Source: Puniceicoccales bacterium
Lineage (GTDB): Bacteria; Verrucomicrobiota; Verrucomicrobiia; Opitutales; LL51
Direction: 5' to 3'
Length of the DNA stretch: 64,000 nucleotides
NCBI GenBank assembly: GCA_031270475.1
Contig: JAISXO010000018.1
Span: forward strand, 105-64,104
The notes beneath the pieces are model-generated. The model made no database searches, was not told the DNA's origin, and worked only from the letters and a program-made list of their open reading frames with translations. The first letter of the stretch is position 1. Each line of letters begins with the position of its first letter. Below, piece after piece: positions 4,389 to 56,033 of the stretch. The position numbers and the translations under genes were made by a program.

Positions 4389-4620
4389 TTTTCTTAGAAA
4401 TTTGTTAACATTTCATCGTAATTTTATAGCTTTCCAATGGAGGATTGAGGTATGTCAAGAGATTTAAGAATAATTTCGCCGCACTGACATCCAATTTGGT
4501 CGCTGAAACACTCACAAATCTCAATTTATTTTCTCTATTATAATTTTCTTAGAAATTTATTGACATTTCATCGTAATTTTATAGCCTCCCAATGAAGGAT
4601 TGAGGTATGTCGAGAGATTT
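4311..4620 (+). repeat. Tandem direct duplication, 2 x 155 bp (4311-4465 and 4466-4620)
   Basis: The two units align end to end with a handful of substitutions. Each unit holds the last ~26 codons plus stop of the GT9 fusion gene, the intergenic region, and the RBS plus first 5 codons (MSRDL) of the downstream chaperone gene. Confidence 0.9.
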
Positions 4621-5107
4621 AATGGTACAGGTAATCAATGATTTTGGCCAAGAGATTGGTGCACAATTGGAAGTCGATGACGAAGCCTATTGCTGTTTAG
4701 CAGTGGGAGATGAATTTCAAGTTCATTTAAAATTTAATGAACATTTTAACGGAATAATTTTTTATACTGAACTCGGGGAAGTTCCCAATGTCGGGAAAAA
4801 AGAAGTTCTTCGCCATTACGTCATGCAGAATGGAACTATCGAATCCAATAATTTGACATTTTCCTACGATGAAGAAAGTAAACAATTGGGAATGGCATGC
4901 CTATTGCCCGTAACATTTACGAATTTGGATAACCTAAAAAAAATCCTCGAAAAGTTTATTGAACGCTATCAAAAAGAACACGAAGACATGGGACGATTTC
5001 TACAAGGTGAACTTCCCAAGGATGATATACAATTTGTAGATGATAGCGGTAGTACCAATGAAGCAATTCCCACAAGCGGCATAGATCCACAATTTATGCG
5101 TCTGTGA
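4607..5107 (+). CDS. Type III secretion class I chaperone (CesT/SycE-like)
   Basis: 166 aa, acidic. The layout FGQEIGAQLEVDDEAYCCLAVGDEFQVHLKFNEHFNGIIFYTELGEVP...LTFSYDEESKQLGMACLLP...LEKFIERY matches the class I chaperone template. It is a paralogue-like match to the ORF at 36594..37088. Confidence 0.65.
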   Translation: MSRDLMVQVINDFGQEIGAQLEVDDEAYCCLAVGDEFQVHLKFNEHFNGIIFYTELGEVPNVGKKEVLRHYVMQNGTIESNNLTFSYDEESKQLGMACLLPVTFTNLDNLKKILEKFIERYQKEHEDMGRFLQGELPKDDIQFVDDSGSTNEAIPTSGIDPQFMRL

Positions 5108-6156: not shown

Positions 6157-8643
<2,487 letters not shown>

Positions 8644-17700: not shown

Positions 17701-17846
17701 AGTGAAAACCTTCTCCAAAAAAAAACTACCTGTCAAGTTTTTTTTCGTTACTTTTTATAGTGAAAATTTTTTTATCTAATATTAAAACAATTCCCGATCA
17801 TTTTAATATGCTAAACCACATTTTTGAAAACTTCTTCAACACTTAA

Positions 17847-18926
17847 TCAGTTGAAAACCGCATTTTCTCGGGCTCGCTCGTCTTTGATATCCTTGACCCA
17901 ACGCAAAACTTCTGCAACCGGTGCCATTAAATCCCTCGGAATGTATTCCATGACGCCCGCCGTATCCAATAGCGCGTGTGCTAAAGGTACATTGCGCATA
18001 ATCGGTATCCCTTCCTTTTCCGCAACAGCTATCATTTGTTCCGCAATGATGCCAACTCCTTTCGCAATCACAATCGGTAGGGGAAAGACGGGGCGCTCAA
18101 AATCGTAGAGTAATGCAATTGCGACATGCTCCGGATTCGTGACTAAAGCCGAAGCCTGTTTTGTCTTTTGAGGGGGATCCTCTTCCATCATTTCTTTGTG
18201 AATTTGTTTGCGTTTACTCTTAACCTGCCCATCGCCCTCGGATTCCTTATACTCCCTTTTGACTTCATCTTTACTCATCTTAAGCCCCTCTTTCCACTTG
18301 TATTTCTGATAGGCATAGTCGAGAGCCGCCATTGCAATGTATGCAAAAATGACCATCTTTGCGAAATTAGTCATAATAGGGCCAAGAATACTCAATACAC
18401 CGGATAACTTGCAAAACGGTAATAAAATTAAATCGTCAAATACATCTTTTACAACACCGACCAACAGGAAGCCCAAAAAAATGATTTTTACCGTTGACTT
18501 CAGCAGTTCGACGAGACTTTTCATGGAAAACATCTGCTGCGCCTTTGACATGGGATTAATTTTACTGAGATCGGGCTGTATCGTTTTCGATGTAAATAGG
18601 ATCCCAACCTGTGCAAAATTTCCAATGAGTCCCATGAGTGCTACCACGAAAATCGCTGGGAAAACAATGCCTCCCGTCTTCATCAAAACACTCCAAAGCG
18701 CCTGACCAGTATACCCCCCCAGATCATTACATCGCCCAATAAATTGGGTAGGGATCAAAATCATCTCTGAAATATTCTCTAAATGTTGATTCCAGCCCAA
18801 TCCAACATAACAAAATGCACCGATTAAAGTAAGCGTCGAATTGACGTCCTGACTCTTCGCAATATTTCCTTTATTGCGCGCGTCACGTATACGTTTCGGT
18901 GTTGGATCTTCGGTTTTTTCGCTCAT
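17847..18926 (-). CDS. sctU: Type III secretion export-apparatus switch protein (SctU/FlhB family)
   Basis: 359 aa. Motifs present: N-terminal EKTEDPTPKRIRDARNKGNIAKSQD, four TM segments, MSKDEVKREYKESEGDGQVKSKRKQ, an autocleavage-site variant NPEH, and a C-terminal GIPIMRNVPLAHAL. Confidence 0.9.
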   Translation of the reverse strand: MSEKTEDPTPKRIRDARNKGNIAKSQDVNSTLTLIGAFCYVGLGWNQHLENISEMILIPTQFIGRCNDLGGYTGQALWSVLMKTGGIVFPAIFVVALMGLIGNFAQVGILFTSKTIQPDLSKINPMSKAQQMFSMKSLVELLKSTVKIIFLGFLLVGVVKDVFDDLILLPFCKLSGVLSILGPIMTNFAKMVIFAYIAMAALDYAYQKYKWKEGLKMSKDEVKREYKESEGDGQVKSKRKQIHKEMMEEDPPQKTKQASALVTNPEHVAIALLYDFERPVFPLPIVIAKGVGIIAEQMIAVAEKEGIPIMRNVPLAHALLDTAGVMEYIPRDLMAPVAEVLRWVKDIKDERARENAVFN

Positions 18927-18957
18927 TTATCCCATTCCTTTCACTTGCTATCGCTCC

Positions 18958-19746
18958 CTATTTTAAGAAATGATTAACAAAAAACGACATTTTACTTTGC
19001 GTGAAAAAATAGTAATGGAACAGTTTTCCCAGCAACGAATAATAAAATAGTAAAAAAAACATCGATAGCCAGCTTTTAACCGGCATTGCCATAAAAAACA
19101 CATTTAATTGTGGTGCAAAACGACTGATCATTCCCAAGCCAAACTCCGCAAGAAATAATACGATTAAAATCGGTGCTGAAAAGCAAAAAACGGACTCCAT
19201 AATCTCATCCGCAAACGACATCATAAATGCCGGGAAATTGACGTCAAATGTAGGGAAAAATGTAAATACAGGCCACATAATATAGGACTTATAAATCACG
19301 CCGAGGAAAAATAAAAATCCCCCCATCGAAAAAAACAGCGTTGCAATCATCTGAGTCAAAAAGCTTCCCAAAAGCGATGTCTGCGAACCAACAACGGGAT
19401 CAAATGTCATGGCCTGCGACGACCCTCTCTGAATATCAATAATGAATCCAACACTATCCGTAATATAAAAAATAAATCCCGATAAATAACCCAACATGGC
19501 CCCCAGGATAACCTCCTTGCAGATCGTTACGAAGATAATAAGCACCGGAATCTGTACCGTTGGTAACGTCGGATACACGGCATGGAAAAGGGGTAAGGCC
19601 ATGGCAAAAATGATGACATTGCGTCCCGTCCCCATGATGTATTGCTTGGCAAATACCGGCGTTAATGACAACGCTGCCGCCAAACGTATGATACACATCA
19701 TCATTAAAAATAAAACTGATGTTACTTCCTCTAGTCCCGCTCCCAT
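18958..19746 (-). CDS. sctT: Type III secretion export-gate protein (SctT/FliR family)
   Basis: 262 aa polytopic membrane protein between sctS and sctU. Its start overlaps the sctS stop (ATGA). FliR/YscT-like hydrophobic pattern. Confidence 0.85.
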   Translation of the reverse strand: MGAGLEEVTSVLFLMMMCIIRLAAALSLTPVFAKQYIMGTGRNVIIFAMALPLFHAVYPTLPTVQIPVLIIFVTICKEVILGAMLGYLSGFIFYITDSVGFIIDIQRGSSQAMTFDPVVGSQTSLLGSFLTQMIATLFFSMGGFLFFLGVIYKSYIMWPVFTFFPTFDVNFPAFMMSFADEIMESVFCFSAPILIVLFLAEFGLGMISRFAPQLNVFFMAMPVKSWLSMFFLLFYYSLLGKLFHYYFFTQSKMSFFVNHFLK

Positions 19747-20015
19747 TAATGAATAATCGTTGGAAAATTGGTAAACAGGCTATTGGCAAACGCGAGTAAC
19801 TCATCGCCGATCCAATAGGCCGATAGCATCAAAACCGTAACAGTAAAGAATAGTTTGATGGCAAATCCCAATGTTTGTTCTTGAATCTGGGTAAGGGCTT
19901 GTAACAAGCTCGTTATCAATCCCACACACGTCGCCACTAAAATGGGCGGCATCGATAACATGAGAATGAGTATCATTGCCTGCTCCGTGATACTAATGAT
20001 AAAATTCTGATCCAT
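19746..20015 (-). CDS. sctS: Type III secretion export-gate protein (SctS/FliQ family)
   Basis: LLQALTQIQEQTLGFAIKLFF is the SctS/FliQ signature. The internal Met (MDQNFIIS) gives the usual ~89 aa length; the track ORF extends to 20042. Confidence 0.85.
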   Translation of the reverse strand: MDQNFIISITEQAMILILMLSMPPILVATCVGLITSLLQALTQIQEQTLGFAIKLFFTVTVLMLSAYWIGDELLAFANSLFTNFPTIIH

Positions 20016-20070
20016 ACGCCTAGCCATTGTTTTTTTAGTCAAATTTTCGCAAATAGCAAGCCCTTAAACT

Positions 20071-22633: not shown

Positions 22634-24352
22634 TTACATCCTATTCACCCGCCTGAAACCCGTTCCGGGAGGAGGCTTACTAGGAGAACCATCAGCATTC
22701 CGCACTGCCCTTTGTTCAAGGGGTGGTGGCGTTTTAAGGACGCGAGTCGGGTGTTCTTCTGACTGGGACGCTGTTCCTCCCACAGGAAGACGATAAGCAG
22801 ACGATAAATTTCTATCAAGGAGCCACTGACGAGAAACCGACCCTTTGCGGCTCAGAGAATCCGACGCATCATCCGACTGGGACGTAGAATCATCCACATC
22901 CGACGAGGACGTAGAATCACCCAGAAAGGTCACCCGCCCCGACTTCCGTGGCGTCTTCACATGTCCTAGTTTGGTACTACAATCTGCCACAACTGTTGTT
23001 ACTTTATTATTACGCTCCAGGAAATGCTGTAATAACGATAGCAAGCCAAGCTTTCCTGTTGTTGCTGGCTTTACTGTTGTTGCTGGCTTTACTGCTTCAG
23101 GTGGAAAGGGTTTGCCGACGAGAAATTCTCTTTCCTCGGGAGTAACCTCTCCACTCTTTGCTAACAAAGACAATTTACCCCATAGACTTACTACGTCACC
23201 ATAGGAACGCGTATCAATACCCTTGAAATTAGGGAAATCCCTTGCTGTTCCTCCCTTAAAACCCAACGTTCCGAAGATATCGTCAGAGAATAATGTATCC
23301 TCGAATAGCGCTGTTAAGTTTTGACTTAGGAAAACATGGTATGTTCTCAATGTATACATATTTGTTAATGGAGGACTATCATAAACTTCAATCTCGGTCT
23401 CGATCAAATAATTCCCATCTGCCTTATCCTTGAATTCTATCGCAGGAAGACTATAATCGGCACTGAAACTTGTTCCATTTGGCTGTTTTACCCAGCCTTG
23501 GCTAGCCAAAACCGATAGGGCTTTTCCTTTCTGTTCATTCCCCTCTCCCTTCACAGTCATGGGATAGAAGTCCTTGATTTTATTAGAATAGTCCCTGTTC
23601 TGAGTAAAGATGTCATTGGCAACGCCTAAACCAGAAAACTTGATCGTTTCTTCAGCCTCCATCGGAAAATCCACCCTATCGCAACAAAATTTAACCTGAG
23701 CTTTGACGCTACTATCATCTTTCAATACTCCGGAGGGAATCATTGTGGGAGAAATGAGTAAAAAACGTCTCCTATTGGGATTGTGGCGATAAATCACTAT
23801 ACTAAAACCCGTTTTGAGATCATGAGAAATGCTAGGACAACTGATGGCAGCCAATATATTTCCGTAGAGATTTAAAACCTCACTGCCATTCTTAGCCTTT
23901 ACATCCTCCACCGTTGCAACCGACTTATCAGCAGGTTTTTTCCCGGGATACCAATAAAATTCTTTATCCGCAGAATGTGCCGGCACGAATATCGGCATTA
24001 CTGGCATCCAATATCTTTCCTCGCTTTTTTTCGAATTCGCATCATAACTCTTTCCGTCGGCAGCGAGCTTATAAAACCACAACGGTTGAACTCCTCTCTT
24101 TCCCCTAACAGTAGGATCAGCCGAAGCAGAGGTAAAAATAGTCGCTTCTCCCTTCTTCTTAGGAAGCTCCGCTTTCTGGAAATTAAGCGAAGCATCCACC
24201 TGAAAAACCAGAGATCTCTTGTTTTTGACGGTGTTCTTTCCTATTTTTGTTCCATCGGGCACCTCAAAGCTCACACTATCCCAGGCATTTGATAAAAGGG
24301 GTGTCATTAGAAACATCCCACTCAATAACTTATTTATAATTTTATAATCCAT
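22634..24352 (-). CDS. Hypothetical secreted protein
   Basis: 572 aa. N-terminus MDYKIINKLLSGMFLMTPLLSNAWDS is signal-like. The C-terminal third is low-complexity (Ser/Asp/Pro rich) and includes KPATTVKPATTG, encoded by an 18-bp x2 repeat at 23058-23093. No recognisable domain. Confidence 0.5.
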   Translation of the reverse strand: MDYKIINKLLSGMFLMTPLLSNAWDSVSFEVPDGTKIGKNTVKNKRSLVFQVDASLNFQKAELPKKKGEATIFTSASADPTVRGKRGVQPLWFYKLAADGKSYDANSKKSEERYWMPVMPIFVPAHSADKEFYWYPGKKPADKSVATVEDVKAKNGSEVLNLYGNILAAISCPSISHDLKTGFSIVIYRHNPNRRRFLLISPTMIPSGVLKDDSSVKAQVKFCCDRVDFPMEAEETIKFSGLGVANDIFTQNRDYSNKIKDFYPMTVKGEGNEQKGKALSVLASQGWVKQPNGTSFSADYSLPAIEFKDKADGNYLIETEIEVYDSPPLTNMYTLRTYHVFLSQNLTALFEDTLFSDDIFGTLGFKGGTARDFPNFKGIDTRSYGDVVSLWGKLSLLAKSGEVTPEEREFLVGKPFPPEAVKPATTVKPATTGKLGLLSLLQHFLERNNKVTTVVADCSTKLGHVKTPRKSGRVTFLGDSTSSSDVDDSTSQSDDASDSLSRKGSVSRQWLLDRNLSSAYRLPVGGTASQSEEHPTRVLKTPPPLEQRAVRNADGSPSKPPPGTGFRRVNRM

Positions 24353-27814: not shown

Positions 27815-29194
27815 ATGCAGATTTATTTTTTAGGCATTGGTGGAACAGCAATGGGAAATTTAGCGATCCTGCTCCAAACGCAGGGCCATGAAGTATATGG
27901 AAGCGATCAAAAAATTTACTCGCCGATGTTCGACCTCCTCGCGGAACATAAAATTGTCACCCATATTGGTTATTCTGCTCAACGGCTCGAAAAATTGAAT
28001 CCCGATCTTGTCGTCATCGGCAATGCTATTGCGCGTGGTAACGAGGAAGTGGAATGGTTACTCGATCGCAAAAAAATTCCCTACTGCTCTCTCCCCGAAC
28101 TCATTCATCAGCAAATAATTGGTAAGCGGGATACGATCGTTGTTTCTGGAACCCACGGAAAAACGACTACGACCGCGCTTATCGCCTATTTGCTATCGAT
28201 GAATCGTTGCGACCCCGGTTATTTTATCGGTGGTGTTCCGCTTAATTTCCCGTCTGGCGGGAATTACGGAAAGGAGGACGGTCCATTTATTATTGAGGGC
28301 GATGAGTATGATTCGGCATTTTTTGACAAACGCAGCAAATTTATTCACTATTCTCCAAAGATTCTTGTTATTAATAATATCGAATTGGATCACCTCGATA
28401 TTTTTCGCGATCTACAGGATATTCAACGGACATTTTCCCATGTGATCAAGCTTGTTCCTTCCTGCGGCTATATCGTAGCCAATGGAGATTCGGCGGCAAT
28501 CCACGAGTTATTGCCGGTTCCCTGGACGCGGACTATTTTTGTTGGGAAAGATGGGGGTAACGATTTTATCATCGAGGATGCGAGGTTAACTCAACAGGAT
28601 ACGACTTTTTCACTGGTCAGTAACACAACTAAAATCTCCATTCGGAGTCCTCTTTTTGGCGAACACAATGTGCGCAATGTGGCGATGGCTATTGTTGCGG
28701 CACAGGAGTATCTTGGAACGAATTTAAATAGTGATCTGAGTCATTTTGCGGGCATTAGAAAGCGCCAGGAAATTATTTTTCGAGATGAGAACACGGTAAT
28801 TATCGAGGATTTTGCACATCATCCGACGGCGATTTCGGAAACGATTTGCGCCATTAAACAGGCATTCCCAAGCCATCGACTCATTACTGCCTTTGAGCCG
28901 CGCAGCAATACTGCCTGCTCCAACTGTTTCCAAAAGGATTTTATTGGTGCTTTTGAGGGCAGCGACGAAGTTTACATCGCGGAAGTTTACAAAAATAGAG
29001 CCCAGAGTTTGGATATCCACAAGCTCGCCCGAGATATCCGCTATTGTCCCGCACAGCCCGTCGACATTTCCAGCATTAAAGCCACTTTCCCGGGAAAAAT
29101 TAATCGCGAAAAGCAAGTTTTTCTCTTCCTATCCAACGGTGATTTTTCTAACCTTGCGCAATATTTAAAGGATAGTGTCAATTCGAAATTCTGA
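27815..29194 (+). CDS. mpl: UDP-N-acetylmuramate:L-alanyl-gamma-D-glutamyl-meso-diaminopimelate ligase (Mpl-like Mur ligase)
   Basis: MQIYFLGIGGTAMGNLAILL, VSGTHGKTTTTALIAYLL (P-loop), IIEGDEYDSAFFDKRSKF and NNIELDHLDIF together give an Mpl-type rather than MurC-type pattern. Confidence 0.85.
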   Translation: MQIYFLGIGGTAMGNLAILLQTQGHEVYGSDQKIYSPMFDLLAEHKIVTHIGYSAQRLEKLNPDLVVIGNAIARGNEEVEWLLDRKKIPYCSLPELIHQQIIGKRDTIVVSGTHGKTTTTALIAYLLSMNRCDPGYFIGGVPLNFPSGGNYGKEDGPFIIEGDEYDSAFFDKRSKFIHYSPKILVINNIELDHLDIFRDLQDIQRTFSHVIKLVPSCGYIVANGDSAAIHELLPVPWTRTIFVGKDGGNDFIIEDARLTQQDTTFSLVSNTTKISIRSPLFGEHNVRNVAMAIVAAQEYLGTNLNSDLSHFAGIRKRQEIIFRDENTVIIEDFAHHPTAISETICAIKQAFPSHRLITAFEPRSNTACSNCFQKDFIGAFEGSDEVYIAEVYKNRAQSLDIHKLARDIRYCPAQPVDISSIKATFPGKINREKQVFLFLSNGDFSNLAQYLKDSVNSKF

Positions 29195-29690
29195 ACCGTA
29201 TCGCTTTGTGTGACACAGCCCGTCGATATTTCCAGTATTAAAGCCACTTTATCGGAGAAAATTAATCGCGAAAAGCAAGTTTTTCTCTTCCTATCCAACG
29301 GTGATTTTTCTAACCTTGCACAATATTTAAAGGATAGTGTCAATTCGAATTTCTGAACCGTATCGCTTTGTGTGACACAGCCCGTCGATATTTCCAGCAT
29401 TAAAGCCATTTTATCGGGAAAAATTAATCGCGAAAAACAAGTTTTTCTCTTCCTATCTAACGGTGATTTTTCTAACCTTGCGCAATATTTGAAGGATAGT
29501 GTCAATTCGAAATTCTGAACCGTATCACTTTGTGTGACACAACCCGCCTATATTTCCAGCATTAAAGCCACTTTCCCGGGAAAAATTAATCGCGAAAAAC
29601 AAGTTTTTTTCTTCCTATCCAACGGTGATTTTTTCTAACCTTGCACAATATTTGAAGGATAGTGCAATTTTGGAATTGCATCGCAAAAAG
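29052..29690 (+). repeat. 162-bp tandem repeat array, about 4 copies, derived from the mpl 3' end
   Basis: Units lie at 29052-29213 (native mpl tail plus stop), 29214-29375, 29376-29537 and 29538 to about 29690 (degenerate, with indels). The period is 162 bp (54 codons). TGA stops recur in phase at 29192, 29354 and 29516. Confidence 0.92.
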
Positions 29691-35151: not shown

Positions 35152-35982
35152 TCATTCCTGGGAAGCTAAATATTCTCGACGTAAAAGACGATAGAATTTC
35201 ATGTTTTCGTATTTGCCTTCTTTTTTACAGAAATCATCTTTTTCACATTCCAATTTGAATCCGCACTTCTCAATAACACGTTGTGACCCAATATTGACAT
35301 TTAAATGATTGATATCCAAACGATTGAGGCCTAAATCCCGGAAAATATAGTCGACAACACGCCTGGCTACCTCCGTCATATACCCCTTGTTCCAATATTT
35401 TTTCGCTAACCAAAAGTGCATTTCAGCCCGATCGTGGGCGTGCTCTAACGTAAGGCCAATGCCTCCAATGAATCGATCTTCCCCTGGCAATGTAATCGCC
35501 CAATATAAAGAATGCCCCATCTCCATGGCGTAATTCAAATTCATCATATATATTTTTACACGATCGCGATCAAATGGCCAAGGCATAAAAGCAAGCATAT
35601 ATACCGTCTCGTAATCCGAAAAGACTTCCGTCAAATCATCCCAATCCTTCGAATGTATAGCACGTAAAACTAGGCGCTCCGTTCCCAAAACAGGAGCTAT
35701 TCCTAACCCCTTGAAATTTGGATCGCTTTCGAGGACAGGATGCTTCGCCTTTTCCTCTAGTACTCGCAAAACCTCCGACCCGGGATTGAGAACATATTTT
35801 TCAGGACCAAAACTTTTCTCCGCAGAAATCGCCCTATCACTTCGCGGAACACAATGGATCGGGAAAAACTTGTTCCCTACCGTTCTCTTCCCAATGGCAA
35901 AGCCAGCCAAAGCAATCAAAAAAGCAGTAACACCAATCCAATAATAACGTCTTGATTTTTTATTCATATTATTTTTCTCCAA
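35152..35982 (-). CDS. GNAT family N-acetyltransferase (RimJ/RimL-like) with N-terminal membrane anchor
   Basis: 276 aa. TM segment YYWIGVTAFLIALAGFAIG, then an Acetyltransf_3-like core (RLVLRAIHSKDWDDL...YWAITL...FIGGIGL...EMHFWLAKKYWNKGYMTE...NIGSQRVIEKCGFKLE). It is a paralogue of 36015..36581. Confidence 0.75.
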   Translation of the reverse strand: MEKNNMNKKSRRYYWIGVTAFLIALAGFAIGKRTVGNKFFPIHCVPRSDRAISAEKSFGPEKYVLNPGSEVLRVLEEKAKHPVLESDPNFKGLGIAPVLGTERLVLRAIHSKDWDDLTEVFSDYETVYMLAFMPWPFDRDRVKIYMMNLNYAMEMGHSLYWAITLPGEDRFIGGIGLTLEHAHDRAEMHFWLAKKYWNKGYMTEVARRVVDYIFRDLGLNRLDINHLNVNIGSQRVIEKCGFKLECEKDDFCKKEGKYENMKFYRLLRREYLASQE

Positions 35983-36014
35983 TTATGGTAATCATAAACA
36001 ACAAAAAATTCAAT

Positions 36015-36581
36015 TCATGCCTTAAATTCTCCGCGTAACTGACTGTAAAATTTCACATCTTCAAATTGTCCAAAACGTTTCACGTAGGCGCGTAACATAC
36101 CTTCAAACTTAAAGCCACACTTTTCAATGACACGCTGCGAACGGATATTGCGTATCATATGATTTACTTCAAGACGATTTAATTTCAAATCTTCAAAGGC
36201 GTATCTCACGATGCGACGGGCAGTTTCTGTTCCGTAACCTTGCCCCCAATACTCTTTTCCAAACCAATAATGCAACTCCGCCTTTTCATGTTCCGGAAAA
36301 ATCGATAACCCTACCGTCCCGATAAATACATTCTTCCTATCGTGGATTCCCCAAAAACAACCCACACCTGCCGCACACATATTATTGATGTGGTTGGCCC
36401 AATTGGCAGCGGCTTGAACCGTATAAGGCCAGGGCGCATAGGTTAACATCCAAACGGTTTCATAATCAGAGAGCAGATTAATGATAGCACCTAAGTCTTC
36501 TTCCCGTATTGGTTGTAACGTCAGGCGCTCCGAGGATACAACAGGACAATTCGCTAAGCCACTCGTATTAACAATGGACAT
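36015..36581 (-). CDS. GNAT family N-acetyltransferase (RimJ/RimL-like)
   Basis: 188 aa. ERLTLQPIREEDLGAI...FWGIHDRKNVFIGTVGLSIFPEHEKAELHYWFGKEYWGQGYGTE...NIRSQRVIEKCGFKFEG. Confidence 0.8.
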   Translation of the reverse strand: MSIVNTSGLANCPVVSSERLTLQPIREEDLGAIINLLSDYETVWMLTYAPWPYTVQAAANWANHINNMCAAGVGCFWGIHDRKNVFIGTVGLSIFPEHEKAELHYWFGKEYWGQGYGTETARRIVRYAFEDLKLNRLEVNHMIRNIRSQRVIEKCGFKFEGMLRAYVKRFGQFEDVKFYSQLRGEFKA

Positions 36582-36593
36582 TTCCTCTTTTCA

Positions 36594-37088
36594 TTAGGCT
36601 CCAAACATCATCATTCCCGGCATACCAATACCGCCATCAGCCGCAATGGCACTTCCTTCGGCTTCGCTATCGGTCATCGCCATCCATTCTTCGAAGCGTT
36701 TCGTATCCCAATGTTCCATTGCACTGACAAATTTCTCTAAAATATTGTAAAAAATATCATTATCAAGCATATTCATATCGCAATATTGTGTCAGTAAAAG
36801 TGTACCATCGGATGGATCGAGCGAAACATTTGCACCGGCCGTATCGCGCCAAAAATGACAACTTTCAAGAATTCCACGGTAAAAAACTGCCTCATCTGCT
36901 GGTAATGCACCGATATAAGCCAAAAAACAAAGTTGTTCTTTTTCAATATCAATGGAACATTTAACAAAATATTTTCCATCAAAAGCAAGATAACAGTCGT
37001 TACTTTCATCCAAGTCCAGTCCTTCGATTTTCAATTTGTCACCAAGTATTTGAACATACGTCCTAAAAGTATCCAAACAATTTTCCAT
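36594..37088 (-). CDS. Type III secretion class I chaperone (CesT-like)
   Basis: Starts at MENCLDTFRTYVQILGDKLKIEGLDLDESNDCYLAFDGKYFVKCSIDIEKEQLCFLAYIGALPAD...VSLDPSDGTLLLTQY...LEKFVSAMEHW. Acidic and about 164 aa. Its stop lies 13 nt upstream of the GNAT start. Confidence 0.65.
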   Translation of the reverse strand: MENCLDTFRTYVQILGDKLKIEGLDLDESNDCYLAFDGKYFVKCSIDIEKEQLCFLAYIGALPADEAVFYRGILESCHFWRDTAGANVSLDPSDGTLLLTQYCDMNMLDNDIFYNILEKFVSAMEHWDTKRFEEWMAMTDSEAEGSAIAADGGIGMPGMMMFGA

Positions 37089-37214
37089 ATTATGTCCCAA
37101 GAATATATTTTTTTCGCAAAAAAACAATCCAAAATTTAACAATGATATTTATTCTTTAAAAATATATCCATCGATTTAAAATAAATTTAATTTAAAATTT
37201 TCACCATCAAGGAA

Positions 37215-38546: not shown

Positions 38547-39356
38547 TTGATGATGGATAATTGGAAAGATTTATTCGTTGTATCCACGCTTTATAGTGGA
38601 TTGTCGTTACACGCATTAGAACCCGTAGTTGTAGAAGAAGCACTTTTCGCATCTTTGCCAGAAGCACCCGCCAAGAATGTCTTATCTACTACTGTTGGGC
38701 AAAATACCCAGCATGATCGTCATTGGCAAGCTTACGGTCAATTTATTTTTTACAACACAGGACTTACCAGCTTCGGTCTAACTGCTCAGGAATTTGAGCA
38801 GATTATCGCCGGCATGAAATCCGCACTTAATGGCGAAAACCCTATTCTAAGCACGAAGGAGGAAATAAACAAGATGCAGCAATTTTTGGAAGACAAAGAA
38901 AAAGAACAAGTTGCAAATAATAAAAAACTCGGCGACGTGTTCTTGAAGGCAAAGTTAGCTGAACAAGGGTTCCAAAAAACACCTTCCGGAGTGGTTTACA
39001 AAATTATCCAACCAGGCAATGCGAAGCGTGCCAATGATGATTCTAACATCAGCATTGATTATATAGGAAAGTCAACCAATGGGAAAGTTTTCGAAAGCAC
39101 ATACGAGCGCAACGAAAAAGCCGTTGTCTATGTGGGCTCGCTCGTTCCCGGCTTTAGCGAAATAGTTAAACTAATCGGTGAAGGTGGCGAAGTGCAAGCT
39201 TTTATTCCGCCAGATTTAGCCTATGGAGATGAAACCGTTGGACCAATTCCCGGTGGATCGGTTTTAGATTTTTCCATTAAAGTTCATGAAATCATTCAAC
39301 CAATGTTGAAAATTGAAGAGCCAAAAGGAATTGACTTGAAAACTCTTTTAAAATAA
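38547..39356 (+). CDS. FKBP-type peptidyl-prolyl isomerase (Mip-like)
   Basis: The C-terminal FKBP domain is VVYKIIQPGNAKRANDDSNISIDYIGKSTNGKVFESTY...VPGFSEIVKLIGEGGEVQAFIPPDLAYGD. It is preceded by a long-helix region as in Mip proteins. Confidence 0.85.
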   Translation: MMMDNWKDLFVVSTLYSGLSLHALEPVVVEEALFASLPEAPAKNVLSTTVGQNTQHDRHWQAYGQFIFYNTGLTSFGLTAQEFEQIIAGMKSALNGENPILSTKEEINKMQQFLEDKEKEQVANNKKLGDVFLKAKLAEQGFQKTPSGVVYKIIQPGNAKRANDDSNISIDYIGKSTNGKVFESTYERNEKAVVYVGSLVPGFSEIVKLIGEGGEVQAFIPPDLAYGDETVGPIPGGSVLDFSIKVHEIIQPMLKIEEPKGIDLKTLLK

Positions 39357-39378: not shown

Positions 39379-39410
39379 GGGCCTGCTCTGAAGAGCAGGC
39401 CCTTTGGGTT
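39379..39410. terminator. Intrinsic terminator hairpin between convergent genes
   Basis: A 10-bp stem GGGCCTGCTC / GAGCAGGCCC with loop TGAA, followed by TTTGGGTT. Confidence 0.65.
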
Positions 39411-39465: not shown

Positions 39466-41616
39466 TTAATGGGGCAACTCTAAGAATAATGACATGTTCG
39501 ATTCACTTCGACACTTTGGAAGTTGCACAGGTTTTGCAGCTCCTGCTGCCTCTCTCATTTTTAAAATAGTACGCGGTGACCGATGGATCGTAGCTTCGTC
39601 ATCGGAATGTCCCATATAGACTTCCGGCAAAGGTCCTCTCGTACTCATTTCCGAATATAATATCGGATACTGATTGGTCCTCACGATTTCGCCATTCATT
39701 AGCGCAAGATTTAAATTCCGAGATGGTAAAAATTTATCAAACAATTTCGCCTGAAAACCATTAGCTCCCGAACCAAAATGTAAATATACAATCAACGAAA
39801 TGCCTCCCAATCGAATCATCCCCATACCATCAGTATCAACATTTCTGGATTCTAGCATTCTCTGAAATTCCGGATCAAAATCAAAGGTGGATTCAATGGG
39901 GGAAGAGCAACAACAACAACAACAGCATAAATAACGTTTTAGACATTCCCAGCATCCACCAGGATTGCTTCCGCCGTTTCCAGCATTTAGCAAGTCAAAC
40001 GCCGTATCAACAAGGGAAATGATGTTAAAACGTCCCTGCGATGAGAACATAACCGTATTGCCATAAATATTATCGACAACTAGATCGAGTATGGCACAAG
40101 TTTCCTCATTGAGCTGAATTTCATGGGGAAATAGGTCACCACGACAAATTCTTTGAATGTCTTCCCAATCATAATCCAATAAAAAGGGAAGGTCCGTAAA
40201 ATGTGATTCCACGTCAATGCTATGCCTTTGACGATATAGATCGAGTGCCTTGTTGCATAAATCGACAACTCCCTCCGGATTAATCCGCTCATAGGTAAAA
40301 TGTTGATGTGCCAACAGATGTTTAATCTCATCCCAACAAATGATCAATTCCGGATTTTCAGGCAAAATCCAATGTTGATCATCATCCATATCAAAGGCAC
40401 TAGGATTAATGCATGCCTTAAGAAAATTAAATAAAAACATGCGATGATTATAGGCAATTTCCGAACAAATACCGCGATGCAATACATCTCTCGCCGAATC
40501 ACATGCCAAATATCCCAACGTTCTGTAGCCGTGTAAACAAGCCATCGTGACGACATCACGAAAAGCAAAATGATTAATCATATTTTCGTGACCAACAAAC
40601 GCATTGTAATTATCTACCGTTGTTTGATCGGCGGCAATACGTGGAGCTGATAGGAAATATCCAAAAAATCGTGGTGTTCTAATGTTATCGATAAACTCAG
40701 GAATCGCATCTTTAAATTGATTAATAATGAGTGGCAAAGCAATCTGCGCTAATCCGCCCCCCTGACTATGGCCCGTCACAACAAAACGAATATTACTCCG
40801 TTCATCTTCCGGGATTTGGTCTATGGCATTTTGAATACTTGTAAAAAGCGGATAAATAAAATCTAGATCCTCCCGCGATTGCAAAGGATTACTAATCTTG
40901 CCTTCGTCAACCATCGCTTCCAATACATCTCGAGACAAATTACAGGAGTTTATTTTAGCCAGGTAGCCCGCATGCACTGCTCCTTCAAATCCATACAACT
41001 CCGGATCGACTTCCATTGGGCTTGCATCATAATTTGTCGCCCAACTCGCACTAAATGCTCCCGATCCCGGCTGAAAATCTTCCCCTTGGCTCCCGCGAAA
41101 TACAGTAACGATGACGGGATATTGCCCATTCTTTAGAATAGCAACGTACCCTGCCAAATCGATTTCCGGAGAAAATCTCCCTAGCGTAAACATTTCCAAA
41201 GAGACATTTAACGCATTTCCGAGATGTGAACCTTCTCTAAGATTTCCATGTATACCGGTAAAATTTCGATCACAATTATACTCGTGATCGGTCTCCGAAA
41301 CATTAAATTCTTGATCGCCCGACAATAACAAACATTCATTGCGAAATTTGCCATTACCTTCCGAGTCTTTTTCCCGTTTCGTAATGGTATAACTACGCTT
41401 AATCAAATGTAGCAAATCGGGCTGCATTGCTCTAAACCACGATGCAACGTGAAATCCATCCCTATCTCTACGAACCAAGGAATGGGGAACTTCCATTTGC
41501 AACGACGACGCAGCATACGGCAATCTATCGCCAAATTCAAAATCGCTATCATTCGATGATCCACATCCCCACGCTCCCAGGCATGCCATCAATCCTATAC
41601 TAATCATTTCCTTCAT
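39466..41616 (-). CDS. Lipase class 3-like alpha/beta hydrolase lipoprotein with poly-Cys tract
   Basis: Starts near MKEMISIGLMACLGAWGCGSS (lipobox). The nucleophile elbow is FVVTGHSQGGGLAQIA. The C-terminal region has LCCCCCCCSS. Confidence 0.65.
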   Translation of the reverse strand: MKEMISIGLMACLGAWGCGSSNDSDFEFGDRLPYAASSLQMEVPHSLVRRDRDGFHVASWFRAMQPDLLHLIKRSYTITKREKDSEGNGKFRNECLLLSGDQEFNVSETDHEYNCDRNFTGIHGNLREGSHLGNALNVSLEMFTLGRFSPEIDLAGYVAILKNGQYPVIVTVFRGSQGEDFQPGSGAFSASWATNYDASPMEVDPELYGFEGAVHAGYLAKINSCNLSRDVLEAMVDEGKISNPLQSREDLDFIYPLFTSIQNAIDQIPEDERSNIRFVVTGHSQGGGLAQIALPLIINQFKDAIPEFIDNIRTPRFFGYFLSAPRIAADQTTVDNYNAFVGHENMINHFAFRDVVTMACLHGYRTLGYLACDSARDVLHRGICSEIAYNHRMFLFNFLKACINPSAFDMDDDQHWILPENPELIICWDEIKHLLAHQHFTYERINPEGVVDLCNKALDLYRQRHSIDVESHFTDLPFLLDYDWEDIQRICRGDLFPHEIQLNEETCAILDLVVDNIYGNTVMFSSQGRFNIISLVDTAFDLLNAGNGGSNPGGCWECLKRYLCCCCCCCSSPIESTFDFDPEFQRMLESRNVDTDGMGMIRLGGISLIVYLHFGSGANGFQAKLFDKFLPSRNLNLALMNGEIVRTNQYPILYSEMSTRGPLPEVYMGHSDDEATIHRSPRTILKMREAAGAAKPVQLPKCRSESNMSLFLELPH
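39907..39927 (-). repeat. Trinucleotide repeat encoding seven consecutive Cys
   Basis: The minus strand reads TGC TGT TGT TGT TGT TGT TGC, in frame with the lipase-like gene. Confidence 0.95.
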
Positions 41617-41960
41617 ATACATCCTTCTAATTGAATGACCTAAGCATAGCATGTGAATTTATTTTTACAACATATTTATGCAAAAAAATAAATATAAGAA
41701 AAACTTATTAAAATTATTAAAATATCCCCCATCTGAGTCATTGAGATACTTTTAATACAAATGCGATTGGCAAAAATTCGCCATTTATAAAATCATAAAA
41801 AACACGGAGTAATAGATATATTCAAACCGGTAAGCTCGAAAACATCTTCGAAACTTACCGGCCCAACAAGATAGAAAAGTATATATAAAACAAAAATACC
41901 GACACTATATGCCGTACCTTTCTGGATTACGGAAAACTTATCGAAATGCAAGAAAAAAAA

Positions 41961-48570: not shown

Positions 48571-49323
48571 AAGCCTTAAGACAATTTGAGCCATCCCTAA
48601 AAGCAATACAGATATTGCTCGCTTCCACTAATATTCACGTTAATCTGCCAGATAAGCAGGGAGAAACGCTATTGGTTGTTTTCGAACGGGCGGGAACGTC
48701 TCGAAAAAATAAAGAGTATGTTACTTGATGCTGGTGCACAGGAAACCGCCGATATACCGGAAGCCGAAGCCCCAATAGAAGAAGACACTGATGTATTGGA
48801 AGAAAAAGACGATGAAATGTCATCACTTCATGATCTATGTGATAGGAACCCATCCGATTTCGATTTCTCCAAAATAATACCGTTAATCAGAAACGGCACG
48901 CTGTTCGAGCAAGTAGATGAAGAAAAACAAATGAAATTGCAACAAATGCTTAATCAAGCGCGCGATCAATATGGGAATTCGCTTTTACATCGAGTTATAA
49001 TAATGGAATCGGTTCCCCTATTAAAAACATTGGTTGATTTTGGTCTCGACGTTAATATGAAAGGAAGGCAATCCCGTACACCTTTACACGGAATTTTAAT
49101 GCATCGTAATCCATCGCTAGAAATAATATCGACATTGCTTAGCGTTCCTGATATCGCGGTTAACTTGCCAGATGAAAATAACGAAACTCCATTAGCTCTC
49201 TATAGGAGAATGCAAAGTCTTTATAGGCAAACGCAAGATTCCCCTAATCAGAAAGAAATAGACGATCAGAAAAATAGAGTTCCTATTGCTTGATGCTGGC
49301 GCACAGGACTACTAAGGAGTGGT
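48571..49323 (+). pseudogene. Ankyrin-repeat gene, apparently disrupted (track ORF 48676..49293 is its largest piece)
   Basis: ANK motifs appear in three frames. Upstream there is ILLASTNIHVNLPDKQGETLLVVFERAG, then a stop. The main ORF begins mid-repeat (KIKSMLLDAGAQE) and contains GNSLLHRVI...GLDVNMKGRQSRTPLHG...VNLPDENNETPLAL. Just past its stop, another frame reads LLDAGAQDY. Confidence 0.5.
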
Positions 49324-50489: not shown

Positions 50490-51332
50490 ATGAGTAAAAA
50501 TTATTATATTAAAAATAGATTACTAAAAAATATCGCACTCGGAATCTTTTTTCCGGGCATTTTTGTGGGAAGTACCGATGCCAGTTTCAGCCAAGCTCAG
50601 AAGCATCGTACTGCCGCAAAACCGCCAGATATGGAACTATCACTCGAGGAACGATCACTCAACGAGGAGCTATTTCAGGCCCTAAAAGAGTCAGAGCCGG
50701 ATCTTGGCAAAATAGAACAATTGCTCGCCCAAGGTGCCAATCCTGACGCACGAAATCAATACAACGATACCCCATTGTTTCATGCAAAAAATGCAGAAAT
50801 AACTGCCCTACTACTCAATGCGGGAGCTAACGCTGACGCACGAAATGACTGCAACAATACCCCATTGTTTCATGCAGAGAATGCAGCAATAACTGCCCTA
50901 CTACTCAATGCGGGAGCCGACGTAGACGCACGAAATCAATACAACGATACCCCATTGTTTCATGCAAAGAATGCAGAAATAACTGACCTACTACTTAATG
51001 CGGGAGCTGACGTAAACGCACAAAGTAACTTGGGCGATACTCCATTACATGTTGCTTTATATCATTTTCAAAAAGACCCAAAACAGATAGAAAAATTATT
51101 GCAAAGAGGCGCAAAAATAGACGTAGCAAGCCGATCTGTAGACCATCCAAAAGGCAATACGCCATTGTTTATAGTACAATGGGCCGCCCAAAAAGGCCTT
51201 CGAAGGCTTCGCACCAGTCTCTTCCCTCATACTCCTTACAAACTGACCGATGACACTCGCATAGCATACGCTAAACTTCTACCGCTATTTTTTCTCCCTC
51301 CTAATCTCTGGCAGAACTTGAATAGCAATTAA
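50490..51332 (+). CDS. Ankyrin-repeat protein with N-terminal signal-like segment
   Basis: 280 aa. IALGIFFPGIFVGSTDASFS leader, followed by repeated DARNQYNDTPLFHAKNAEITALLLNAGA units. Confidence 0.8.
   Translation: MSKNYYIKNRLLKNIALGIFFPGIFVGSTDASFSQAQKHRTAAKPPDMELSLEERSLNEELFQALKESEPDLGKIEQLLAQGANPDARNQYNDTPLFHAKNAEITALLLNAGANADARNDCNNTPLFHAENAAITALLLNAGADVDARNQYNDTPLFHAKNAEITDLLLNAGADVNAQSNLGDTPLHVALYHFQKDPKQIEKLLQRGAKIDVASRSVDHPKGNTPLFIVQWAAQKGLRRLRTSLFPHTPYKLTDDTRIAYAKLLPLFFLPPNLWQNLNSN
50745..51014 (+). repeat. Intragenic 90-bp (30-codon) tandem repeats, 3 units
   Basis: GACGCACGAAAT recurs at 50745, 50835 and 50925. Units 1 and 3 are nearly identical at the DNA level. Confidence 0.9.
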
Positions 51333-52677: not shown

Positions 52678-53856
52678 CTATATTTTATCAAATTCATTGA
52701 TCGTTGTAATACCGTCGCGAACATTTTCAGCAGCGACTTTTTTCAACGATACGAGACCATTTTTAACGGCAAGTGCGTGCAATGCATCCAACGGTAAACG
52801 TTTGCGAATGCTATCGCGAATATTAAGTGCCAACGGCAACCATTCGTAAATGCCAAAACGCCCCTTATATCCCTTCCCATCACACTGGGCACAACCACGA
52901 CCATGATAGACTTTTGTAATGCCATAAGGTTCAAGTTTCTCTATGTCCTCATTCGTCATGGGCATTTCTCCTTTACAATTTGAACAAATACGCCGTAAAA
53001 GACGCTGCGCTATAATTCCCTTTACCGTATCCGCAATCAGGTAGGGATCAATTTCCATGTCGACAAGCCGCGTCACTGCACTAGGCGCATCGTTGGTGTG
53101 TAGCGTTCCCAACACGAGATGTCCCGTCAATGCCGCTTGAATTGCAATTTTTGCCGTAATTGTATCGCGCAACTCACCGACGAGAATTTTATCGGGATCG
53201 TGACGTAAAAAAGCACGCAAAGCACTTTCAAATGTTAGGCCAACGTCGTCCCGAACATTAACTTGCACCATACCCTCGGTTTCGTATTCAACGGGATCCT
53301 CAACGGTCACGATTTTCGTTTCCTCATCATTAATTTCATTGAGCGCACTGTAGAGCGTCGTCGTTTTACCGCTCCCCGTTGGACCCGTCGTCAAAATAAT
53401 CCCCGAACCAGAGTTCAATGCTTGGCGAAATTCCACCAAAATTTCTGGCGAAATACCGATCTCATCCAAATTAAAATGCCACGAACCCTGATCTAAAACG
53501 CGTAATACAATGCTTTCACCGTACTGCGTGGGCAAAGTGGAAACACGGAAATCGACGGAACGTCCCAAACAAGTACGTTCGATGTGACCATCTTGTGGAA
53601 GGCGTTTTTCGGCGAGGTCGAGGGCAGCAAGTGTTTTGACGCGGGAGATAATTGCATCGCCAAGGCTACGTTCTGGAGCTGGCAATTCCACGAGTACACC
53701 ATCGATGCGTAAGCGAATGAGAACACTATTGGCAAACGTTTCGAAGTGAACATCAGACGCTCCTTTTTTGACGGCATATTCGAGCACATGGTCTACAAAA
53801 CGTATGATAGGAAACTCCGTATCTTCCGGCATAATCTTTCGCATTGAATCTAACAA
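52678..53856 (-). CDS. GspE/PilB-family secretion ATPase (short form, no N1 domain)
   Basis: 392 aa. Walker A is TTGPTGSGKTTT. Also has VEDPVEYE, ILVGELRD, LVLGTLHTNDAP and the tetra-Cys motif CSNCKG...CAQCDGKGYKGR. Confidence 0.85.
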   Translation of the reverse strand: MLDSMRKIMPEDTEFPIIRFVDHVLEYAVKKGASDVHFETFANSVLIRLRIDGVLVELPAPERSLGDAIISRVKTLAALDLAEKRLPQDGHIERTCLGRSVDFRVSTLPTQYGESIVLRVLDQGSWHFNLDEIGISPEILVEFRQALNSGSGIILTTGPTGSGKTTTLYSALNEINDEETKIVTVEDPVEYETEGMVQVNVRDDVGLTFESALRAFLRHDPDKILVGELRDTITAKIAIQAALTGHLVLGTLHTNDAPSAVTRLVDMEIDPYLIADTVKGIIAQRLLRRICSNCKGEMPMTNEDIEKLEPYGITKVYHGRGCAQCDGKGYKGRFGIYEWLPLALNIRDSIRKRLPLDALHALAVKNGLVSLKKVAAENVRDGITTINEFDKI

Positions 53857-54008: not shown

Positions 54009-56033
54009 TCAATTCCATTCAGTACTTGATTCTTGCGGATCTCCTTCAGTACTGGAATTTTTTATATCTTCGCGAATGAGACTTGTTTTCAGCATTATGT
54101 CTTCCAGTCTAACCTCATTATCATTAGGTTTTATGCTTTTGATGATATCTTCCGCTAAAAGTTTACTATCTAATATATTATTCTGTAATATCTTTACTTG
54201 TTTTTCCAATTCTTCCGTTTCTTTGTGCAGTTGCTCATAAGCTATTTGCTTCTCGGCGACGTCTTCGCTACTGTTTATTTTTGCTTCTGCAAGAGCCACT
54301 CTGGCTTCCGCCTTTTGTTTTTGCAATTCATGCAATTGGAGACGCTTTTCCTTTAATTCCGCCACTCCACTTCTCACCACTTCTTGGAGTTTAGGCAAAA
54401 CTCTTTCAAATTTGTTGCCACTGATCTCTTGTCCTTTTTTTAGTAGCTCCGGCGATACTTCCGTCACAAATTTACGAGCTGCAGAACGATTTTCTACCAT
54501 TCGATCGAATATATCTGAGGTCAATCTTACCTTTCCTGCTTCTTCCGGAAGAACAATACTATTAATGGCATCATCACTATATTCCCCTCCATGATCTCTC
54601 CGTTGTACGTCTGGAAGTTTAGTCAATTCCGCTTTCGCTTTAGTTAATTCCTCTTCAAGTTCTTTCTGTTTCTCCTTTTTAGCTACCTCCGCTGCTTTGG
54701 TCTCCGCTGTTATCGCTTTCATTTCGGGACTTGCGTCATCTTCCTCACTCCATCCACTTTGCATTTTTAATGCGTCATCTAATTCATCGCTTGCCCCCTC
54801 TTTTGGAACAAATAGTAACGGTCCTTCTCTGGCTGCTTCTGGAGTTGTATTTTCCGTTTGCGAGGTTGGTTTTTGGTCAACTTTCTTCAATTTAATTACA
54901 TGGATCGCATCGACAGTTACACCTTCACCTCCTGTTGGTGCCTCTCTACGTGGTGGTGACGGCGATTTCGGTATACTGGCCGCAGTGTCGTCAGACGTCG
55001 GCATTTTGGAAATCTTTCCCGGAGGAGGAGGCGGTGGTGGCGGTGGCGGTGGCGGTGCACCTGCTTTTACTTCTTCGGCTAGATCAGGCTGCGCAACTGG
55101 CTTCCCTAACCCCACAGATCCCGCTACAGTATCAGACGTCGATAATTTAGGCGGGGTTCCTGGCAGTGAAACTGGATTTGATGCCGTTGCTTCCGATTGT
55201 GGTTTTTCAAAGAATTTGCCCAAAAATGCAAATTCATTTTCTTGATGGTTATTTTTAATGATGTCTATCGCTGATCTATCGCTGCCAACTGACGTACTTA
55301 AAATCGCCTTTAATGCTTCCTCATCATCTTTAAAAGCATCGGCTACGCTTTTCAAAATATCAGCATTTCCCCTGGTAGCAGCTAAAGCAATCGGTGTCAA
55401 CCCTACACTCCCACGATGTAATAAGGCGTCCCTTAAAGCTTCTTTATCATCTTTAAGATTTTTTACAATAGTCTCAAAAATAGCAATGTTTTCATGGGTA
55501 GCAGCACAGACCAGCGGTGTATCGCCTGTGCTATCTTCTCCAGTTAGAACTGTTTTCAATGTTTCTTTATTACCTTGACAGCCATCAACCGCAGCATTGA
55601 AAATAGCCGTTTGGTCATTGGATGCAGACCATGTCAATAGTGTCTGACCGCCACCGAGACCTCCTATATGTTGCCCTAGAATTTCTGCTACGCCTTCCGG
55701 ATGGACATTCTTTAAGGTATTCCTTGTCATCTCGGGAGTTACGTTCCAATTCTGAACCGCTTTGGCTAACTGTTGGCTTTTCGCCTGAACCATTTCAGGA
55801 GACGCATTGCGTTCGCCACTTCCCCGGACCTGAGATCCTTCTCCCATCTGTCCTTTAATTTTTACGTGTTTCGTCCTCAAAGTATTACTAGACCCTCCGA
55901 ACAAAAACAGCCCAACTGCGCACATCCCTTGTTTAAAACCCAAACTACCAACTTCATCTTTACCTTGACGAGCTATGTCGCGACATAGATCCCATCGGCT
56001 TAAGTTAGTACAATCATTTTGTATTCCACTCAT
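54009..56033 (-). CDS. Candidate secreted effector: ankyrin-like repeats, 12-Pro tract, WH2-like motif, acidic Trp patch, coiled coil
   Basis: 674 aa with no signal peptide. ANK-like units cover residues ~130-260 (GDTPLVCAATHENIAIFETIV, GLTPIALAATRGNADILKSV). Other elements are P327-P338, VDAIHVIKLKKVDQ (375-387) and SDELDDALKMQSGWSEEDD (415-433). The C-terminal ~230 aa is Glu/Lys-rich and heptad-like. Confidence 0.6.
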   Translation of the reverse strand: MSGIQNDCTNLSRWDLCRDIARQGKDEVGSLGFKQGMCAVGLFLFGGSSNTLRTKHVKIKGQMGEGSQVRGSGERNASPEMVQAKSQQLAKAVQNWNVTPEMTRNTLKNVHPEGVAEILGQHIGGLGGGQTLLTWSASNDQTAIFNAAVDGCQGNKETLKTVLTGEDSTGDTPLVCAATHENIAIFETIVKNLKDDKEALRDALLHRGSVGLTPIALAATRGNADILKSVADAFKDDEEALKAILSTSVGSDRSAIDIIKNNHQENEFAFLGKFFEKPQSEATASNPVSLPGTPPKLSTSDTVAGSVGLGKPVAQPDLAEEVKAGAPPPPPPPPPPPPGKISKMPTSDDTAASIPKSPSPPRREAPTGGEGVTVDAIHVIKLKKVDQKPTSQTENTTPEAAREGPLLFVPKEGASDELDDALKMQSGWSEEDDASPEMKAITAETKAAEVAKKEKQKELEEELTKAKAELTKLPDVQRRDHGGEYSDDAINSIVLPEEAGKVRLTSDIFDRMVENRSAARKFVTEVSPELLKKGQEISGNKFERVLPKLQEVVRSGVAELKEKRLQLHELQKQKAEARVALAEAKINSSEDVAEKQIAYEQLHKETEELEKQVKILQNNILDSKLLAEDIIKSIKPNDNEVRLEDIMLKTSLIREDIKNSSTEGDPQESSTEWN
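55020..55055 (-). repeat. Twelve consecutive proline codons (CCN)12
   Basis: The plus strand reads GGAGGAGGAGGCGGTGGTGGCGGTGGCGGTGGCGG, in frame with the gene at 54009..56033. Confidence 0.95.

Follow-up and report, generated by a model that had tools for sequence, protein, structure and literature searches.

Introduction

Class-3 lipases, among them those of Rhizomucor miehei and Thermomyces lanuginosus and the plant DAD1-like phospholipase A1 (PLA1) CaPLA1 (7x0d), have an alpha/beta-hydrolase fold with an FRGS oxyanion strand, a GHSxG nucleophile elbow, an Asp in an RD-V/I-V motif and a His near the C-terminus. Here we describe a gene on the minus strand of a 64-kb stretch of DNA from a Puniceicoccales bacterium (GenBank assembly GCA_031270475.1, contig JAISXO010000018.1, positions 105 to 64,104; "the window" hereafter means this whole stretch), whose predicted product shares the fold and each of these elements and carries a run of seven consecutive cysteines. 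Its sequence similarity to class-3 lipases is marginal. The insertion between Asp and His comprises about 250 residues, versus about 54 in the fungal enzymes, and unlike them the window protein is predicted to begin with a bacterial signal peptide and includes a Cys-string module. Judged by sequence, it is a divergent branch of the class-3 lipases with an unusual Asp-His insertion, and the family that forms this branch is small and uncharacterised. The plant proteins EDS1, PAD4 and SAG101 likewise combine a class-3 lipase-like domain with a large helical region (Foldseek expectation value (E) 3e-5 to 1e-3), but their helical EP domain is C-terminal, whereas the helical region of the window protein lies between Asp and His. 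Superposition on the EDS1 family over long alignments is poor (root-mean-square deviation above 20 Å), and the window protein appears to have an intact triad.

A second set of relevant systems concerns the cysteines. In bacterial effectors such as SspH2, SseI, GobX and LpdA, the acylated Cys are few and lie near a terminus. All four, LpdA being a phospholipase, are brought to host membranes by host S-palmitoylation (PMC5780409). The window protein may share with these effectors the proposed logic of host S-acylation as a membrane address, but LpdA, a phospholipase D effector of Legionella pneumophila, has an unrelated fold and is delivered by Dot/Icm, whereas the window protein is predicted to be Sec-exported. 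Its family also differs from effectors of the LpdA type in carrying an internal string of 4-9 Cys, for which acylation is a prediction.

Among eukaryotic proteins, acylated Cys clusters are described for ABHD17, the SNAP25 linker, cysteine-string protein, CYSTM and the Sprouty cysteine-rich domain (PMC12562545, PMC5362264, PMC10840359, PMC7657471). Such clusters are likewise dense in Cys and have hydrophobic and basic residues on their flanks, and they tolerate variation in how many Cys there are and how these are spaced; ABHD17 is itself an alpha/beta hydrolase anchored via its Cys cluster. All of these proteins are cytosolic; their likeness to the module in the window protein is compositional and we claim no homology.

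A seven-cysteine run unique in the window

The lipase-like coding sequence occupies positions 39466-41616 on the minus strand (716 amino acids (aa) plus stop), as an earlier sequence-only reading of this DNA had proposed for a lipase-like product of 700+ aa. Residues are numbered here, as in alignment A1 and the structure model, on the longest open reading frame (ORF) at the locus (39466-41652, minus strand, 728 aa); numbers for the 716-aa protein are lower by 12. The same reading had called a seven-Cys (TGY)7 run at 39907-39927, and we confirmed it as TGC(TGT)5TGC on the coding strand (minus strand, residues 576-582): the peptide GGCWECLKRYLCCCCCCCSS is present, and the plus strand at 39907-39927 reads GCAACAACAACAACAACAGCA. 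Tandem Repeats Finder reports a perfect 3-nucleotide (nt) repeat of 5.7 copies at 39908-39924, and no other trinucleotide repeat in the 64 kb reaches 5 units. Among the 176 stop-to-stop frames of at least 80 aa in the window, where the background Cys frequency is 2.1%, no other stretch has 4 or more Cys in 10 residues. Chance does not account for the run. Within the window and about 340 kb of related loci, the lipase family alone has Cys strings of this kind.

A cysteine module kept in composition and variable in spacing

A search of 5.8 billion clustered proteins returned 39 homologues, and those with a named source all belonged to metagenome-assembled genomes (MAGs) of Puniceicoccales or Opitutales. 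A profile search of 1.84 billion representatives gave 214 matches at E <= 0.001, about seven of them with the full-length architecture; the N-terminal ~350 profile positions are the only part common to more distant relatives. No strain closer than 66% identity was found in the homologue and metagenome searches. The metagenome scan for the lipase family yielded two distant relatives and nothing else, and a scan with a degenerate pattern spanning the Cys module gave no match, though the pattern fits the window and two loci.

In a neighbour-joining tree computed with the Cys regions removed, the sequences fell into three groups (clades A, B and C). Clade B comprises 22 aligned sequences with 36-69% identity to the window protein and is marked by an insertion of ~27 residues, with G-G-x-x-E-x-L-[KR]-R ahead of a Cys string; the insertion is missing from clades A and C. 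This clade-specific module, GGCWECLKRYLCCCCCCCSSPIESTF in the window protein (39883-39960, minus strand, residues 565-590), reads as a basic amphipathic helix and then the Cys string. The predicted helix before the string, CWECLKRYL, has a hydrophobic moment of about 0.5. Across the 22 clade-B sequences Cys accounts for 19.9% of the insertion versus 2.0% of the remainder of the same proteins, and the insertion holds at least 4 Cys in 19 of them. The strings themselves vary in number and spacing (CLCCCCSL, FCCSCCC, FCCTCC, CCCSCCC, ICPCIW). The Cys-poor members of the clade (P0020/P0021 and P0016) have 5-8 Cys in a second patch near helix 143-155, and the sister clade C (P0035, P0038 and L022), in which the insertion is missing, has 5-8 Cys around the same helix. 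A homologue search had been proposed in the sequence-only reading as the check on the run, and its outcome is a Cys-rich patch that is kept across orthologues while its length varies. A defined metal-binding Cys motif of the Fe-S or zinc-finger type was rejected, given that the spacing varies, CxxC is often lost and one member is Cys-free.

The codons bear on how the string arose. Synonymous Cys codons differ between orthologues (TGC TGT TGC TGT vs TGC TGT TGT TGT), which argues that Cys is kept by selection and not by repeat dynamics alone. The (TGT)5 in the window is uniform, which points to a four-Cys ancestor whose string was recently expanded by slippage. Given (TGT)5 here and a mixture of TGC and TGT codons in relatives, the earlier suggestion that the repeat could expand or contract in frame is plausible. 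Phase variation via the repeat was rejected because gaining or losing 3-nt units preserves the reading frame, so that the gene cannot be turned off.

We also weighed whether the run is functionless, a low-complexity product of codon slippage in a tolerant surface loop, and consider this quite unlikely. Slippage alone would account for the perfect (TGT)5 core, for its position in a segment of lower model confidence, and for the variation in run length, including the Cys-free state of clade-B member P0018 and of a homologue in an Entamoeba assembly, yet it sits poorly with a tenfold Cys enrichment that holds over 22 orthologues, to 36% identity, while the flanks change. Synonymous TGT/TGC changes that keep Cys, complementary Cys counts at the two patches and the rarity of Cys elsewhere (about 2%) speak against it as well. 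On these computational grounds, there is a good case that the Cys-rich module is under selection in what is probably a host-associated bacterium.

A class-3 lipase fold with conserved catalytic residues

The protein matches Pfam PF01764 (Lipase_3) with 24.6 bits against a gathering cutoff of 22 (E 2.6e-5) over residues 202-315 (40708-41049, minus strand), and a precomputed PF01764 match is present in many of the homologues. Single-protein searches of NCBIfam and of PDB sequences gave no match, and a PDB profile search gave marginal matches only, at the nucleophile motif (E about 0.3). An AlphaFold2 model built on 35 homologues reached a mean predicted local distance difference test score (pLDDT) of 78 and a predicted template-modelling score of 0.82. 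Its best Foldseek match in PDB was CaPLA1 (E 1.5e-7), with further matches to the Rhizomucor and Thermomyces lipases, feruloyl esterase A and the EDS1 family; the top 45 PDB matches were all class-3 lipases, plant PLA1, feruloyl esterase A or EDS1-family proteins.

The catalytic elements are readily placed. The FRGSQ oxyanion-hole strand (residues 185-189; 41086-41100, minus strand) aligns with SFRGSRS of Thermomyces lipase, and in the 35-sequence alignment R186, G187 and Q189 are invariant and S188 nearly so. The GHSQGG nucleophile elbow (residues 294-299; 40756-40773, minus strand) aligns with GHSLGG of the same enzyme; G294, H295, S296, Q297 and G298 are invariant in the 35 sequences, and the codon of the catalytic Ser296 lies at 40765-40767. 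The predicted catalytic acid is Asp366 (40555-40557, minus strand) in FRDVV, which matches the RDIVP motif of fungal class-3 lipases, and the predicted base is His625 (39778-39780, minus strand) in YLHFGS, which resembles their H-x-x-Y-F-G; both are invariant in the 35 sequences. By sequence and model, then, the protein is a class-3 (Lipase_3)-fold serine hydrolase, and because this fold is joined to invariant RGSQ, GHSQG, Asp366 and His625, the enzyme looks catalytically competent. The class-3-lipase-like character and GHSQGG elbow named in the sequence-only reading thus stand, and the profile support for a lipase fold that it had set as a check is there. We infer that the enzyme is probably a phospholipase A1-like lipase.

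Asp366 and His625 are about 260 residues apart. Between them the model places a mostly helical insertion of ~200 residues (387-585; 39898-40494, minus strand), delimited by predicted secondary structure and pLDDT, which may form a cap domain. The Cys module was modelled with a pLDDT of about 58-65. The C-terminal tail (residues 672-728; 39469-39639, minus strand) is predicted to be disordered (pLDDT <50) and is variable in alignment A1.

The position of the module raises the prospect of self-acylation, in which the acyl-serine intermediate of the lipase would be passed to the neighbouring Cys string with no host enzyme involved. The intact catalytic set, with a segment rich in thiols next to it where the predicted cap ends, would suit such a transfer, but we know of no precedent for it in class-3 lipases, and we regard it as very unlikely.

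The N-terminus and the route of export

The N-terminal segment MKEMISIGLMACLGAWGCGSS (41554-41616, minus strand) has a basic start, an uncharged stretch of ~18 residues and a polar Gly/Ser end. This layout recurs in most full-length homologues: the start bears Lys, the uncharged core spans 11-18 residues, and a polar Gly/Ser end follows. The model shows a low-confidence helix (5-26) followed by a disordered linker (25-53). By these features the N-terminus is an ordinary Sec-type signal peptide. The sequence-only reading had seen a lipoprotein signal in LGAWGC, and this part of it did not hold. A bacterial lipoprotein anchored through that N-terminal Cys would explain a Cys after the hydrophobic core, which is seen in the window sequence alone; in AWGC, however, the Trp at position -2 is a mismatch to the lipobox [LVI][ASTVI][GAS]C, and the aligned homologues have W, S, Q, K, R or F at the Cys column (Cys in 0/34). 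Lipoprotein membership was rejected on the misfitting lipobox and a Cys that is not conserved in orthologues, and we consider such an anchor extremely improbable.

Delivery of the lipase by an injectisome was also considered and judged unlikely, because its N-terminus is hydrophobic and of Sec type. A gene for a GspE/PilB-like ATPase is present at 52678-53856 (minus strand, 392 aa); the N-terminal part of the profile is missing, its scores are below the equivalog cutoffs, and no type II secretion or pilus genes adjoin it.

A possible S-acylated membrane anchor

Our preferred, still tentative reading, to which we assign a probability of roughly 0.4, is that the Cys module is an S-acylated membrane anchor of a secreted phospholipase-like enzyme. 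The enzyme would leave the bacterium and reach the host cytoplasm, where the amphipathic, Lys/Arg-bearing helix would make the first membrane contact. S-acylation of the Cys string would follow, most likely through host DHHC acyltransferases, and the acylated module would fix the PLA1-like active site against the host membrane. In this genome, slippage at the TGT codons would have extended the string to its seven residues. The passage beyond the periplasm, the encounter with host acyltransferases and the acylation are steps that we infer. The anchor reading draws on a Cys composition that is conserved while its spacing is not, on two patches that appear interchangeable, on the likeness to eukaryotic acylation clusters, on the precedent of palmitoylated bacterial effectors and on the gene context. 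The place of the Cys patch, in a lower-confidence segment directly after the amphipathic helix, supports it as well.

If the module is host-acylated, a targeting trick known from a handful of animal pathogens (Salmonella, Shigella, Legionella) would extend to uncultured verrucomicrobial symbionts of termite-gut protists, and there would be a handle on how such symbionts act at host membranes, in entry, escape from the digestive vacuole or lipid scavenging. A more specific form of the idea is a host-lipidation anchor that shifts position between two surface sites, with an acyl number tuned by slippage, on a Sec-exported phospholipase that acts on protist membranes. We hold this form to be doubtful. 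If true, a protist endosymbiont would here be seen for the first time to exploit host S-acylation, and this would also be the first such substrate not delivered via type III or type IV secretion.

Several observations weigh against an anchor of this kind. Injectisome substrates are normally without such signal peptides, and a Sec signal peptide delivers the protein only to the periplasm; within the window we found no route of export across the outer membrane, the lone GspE/PilB-like ATPase being the sole candidate. The Cys patch is missing in clade A, in clade-B member P0018 and in the Entamoeba marina-assembly homologue. The literature on the lifestyle of these bacteria is divided: one paper describes Opitutales with small genomes from lower termites (families LL51 and UBA9783) as putative protist endosymbionts (PMC11257099), and another regards UBA9783 from farm animals as possibly free-living (PMC12306168). 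Finally, the lipase belongs to the syntenic core and lies among envelope genes (yajC, gmhA, glycosyltransferase-4 and Mip-like FKBP), and a housekeeping role in the envelope therefore fits its position equally well.

That role defines an alternative that we consider unlikely, in which the enzyme is retained in the periplasm or outer membrane to remodel lipids of the bacterium itself, and the Cys patch serves as a disulfide tether or oligomeriser or as a metal binder. Chlamydiae, which belong to the same superphylum, have an envelope cross-linked via Cys-rich proteins. Their OmcA and OmcB, Sec-exported and Cys-rich proteins from a related phylum of host-associated bacteria, offer a model for the disulfide version, although their Cys are spread along the sequence, unlike the single string on an enzyme here, and there is no homology. 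An envelope enzyme would be well served by the Sec-type signal peptide, by the lack of an identified outer-membrane export route and by the conserved order among envelope and secretion genes (yajC, gmhA, glycosyltransferase-4 and FKBP/Mip) in all clade-B loci. Also in its favour, a CxxC (CWEC) at the start of the helix precedes the string in the nearest relatives. CxxC is lost in many clade-B members, however, and Cys number and spacing are not conserved, as would be expected of neither a defined metal site nor disulfides in a fixed pattern. Nor would such a role readily explain why the patch is apparently replaceable by one at another position, and it fits poorly with an anoxic habitat and with a survey, confined to the window, that saw no Dsb gene. 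Were the enzyme nonetheless an envelope resident, the module would be an ordinary lineage-specific decoration of a housekeeping enzyme.

Gene structure and synteny

Returning to the gene itself, the start at 41616 is Met13 of the 728-aa ORF, the residue from which homologues align, and is the same as in the JGI gene call (P0040, 716 aa). A Shine-Dalgarno-like GAAGGA (41622-41627, minus strand), read from the sequence, lies 5 nt upstream of this ATG. Alternative starts are the in-frame ATG at 41652, which gives 728 aa, and the NCBI call at Met16, which gives 713 aa. A GC-rich hairpin, GGGCCTGCTC-TGAA-GAGCAGGCCC (39379-39402, no strand assigned), lies between the convergent lipase and FKBP genes and is likely their two-way terminator. 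No lipase paralogue was found within the 64-kb window, and the gene is single-copy in each MAG.

The gene order is glycosyltransferase-4 gene, gmhA, yajC, lipase, Mip-like FKBP (convergent), rpsT, DUF374, CesT, GNAT and GNAT. This order is wholly or partly kept in every clade-B locus, and clade-B loci share no neighbours with the other clades. In the closest genomes the lipase is 64-66% identical, FKBP 38-46% and the other neighbours 72-90%. The Mip-like FKBP (38547-39356, plus strand) is the fastest-diverging neighbour, with 37-52% identity across loci. Lipase homologues were also found on contigs of 757 and 878 kb. The best explanation is that the lipase is a vertically inherited gene of a small-genome Opitutales/Puniceicoccales lineage from the hindguts of lower termites, a lineage equipped with an injectisome and with eukaryote-like proteins.

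Host-interaction genes in the window and the source of related genomes

The window contains non-flagellar type III export-apparatus genes at 17847-20042 (minus strand), encoding SctU, SctT and a 98-aa SctS-like ORF. SctU scored 368 bits against TIGR01404 (cutoff 358) and SctT 206 bits against TIGR01401 (cutoff 163), both non-flagellar equivalogs of NCBIfam. Near them, ORFs at 16354-17736 (minus strand, 460 aa) and 22634-24352 (minus strand, 572 aa) have tails rich in Ser, Pro and charged residues and no Pfam or NCBIfam match; they are possible effectors. At 35152-37142 (minus strand) a CesT-family type III chaperone gene precedes two genes for GNAT acetyltransferases, and this trio, whole or partial, recurs in nearly all clade-B loci that are long enough (L001-L006 and L010-L013).

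Three ankyrin-repeat proteins are encoded at 48676-49293 (plus strand), 50490-51332 (plus strand) and 54009-56033 (minus strand). Ankyrin units of the second are encoded by a 90-nt tandem repeat (50745-51021). The third combines a run of 12 prolines (aa 327-338) with a long C-terminal region in which no domain was detected; it has no signal peptide and looks like a eukaryote-directed effector.

Kalotermitidae are lower termites. Ten termite sample codes occur among the MAG names, and the supplement to PMC11257099, which lists hindgut samples and host species, traces nine of the ten to Kalotermitidae (Ct408, Cc175, Cd354, Gx481, Gsp477, Im510, Ncb351, Pcl387 and Roe453; Po218 is the exception). 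The injectisome genes, the CesT chaperone, the ankyrin proteins, the lower-termite MAGs and the small genomes together suggest contact with eukaryotic cells and make a eukaryotic host plausible; published accounts of the lifestyle are divided on the point.

Two further tandem repeats with 93-95% matches were seen in the window, at 4310-4622 (155 nt x 2.0 copies) and at 29052-29669 (162 nt x 3.8 copies); the latter overlaps the 3' end of a Mur-ligase ORF and the spacer that follows it.

Homologues in an Entamoeba assembly and a Holosporales MAG

A near full-length homologue (P0048/P0193; KAL7716341.1 and KAL7716340.1) occurs on a 480-kb contig annotated as Entamoeba marina. It is 36% identical to the window protein (pairwise E 8e-117), with the insertion present and Cys-free. 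The gene may have been transferred to the amoeba, or the contig may come from a symbiont or a contaminant and bear a eukaryotic label. The core of the lipase also has a distant match, with 30% identity over residues 158-361, at 8001-8495 of a Holosporales MAG locus (L025, JBKCUK010000005.1); Holosporales are an order known for protist endosymbionts.

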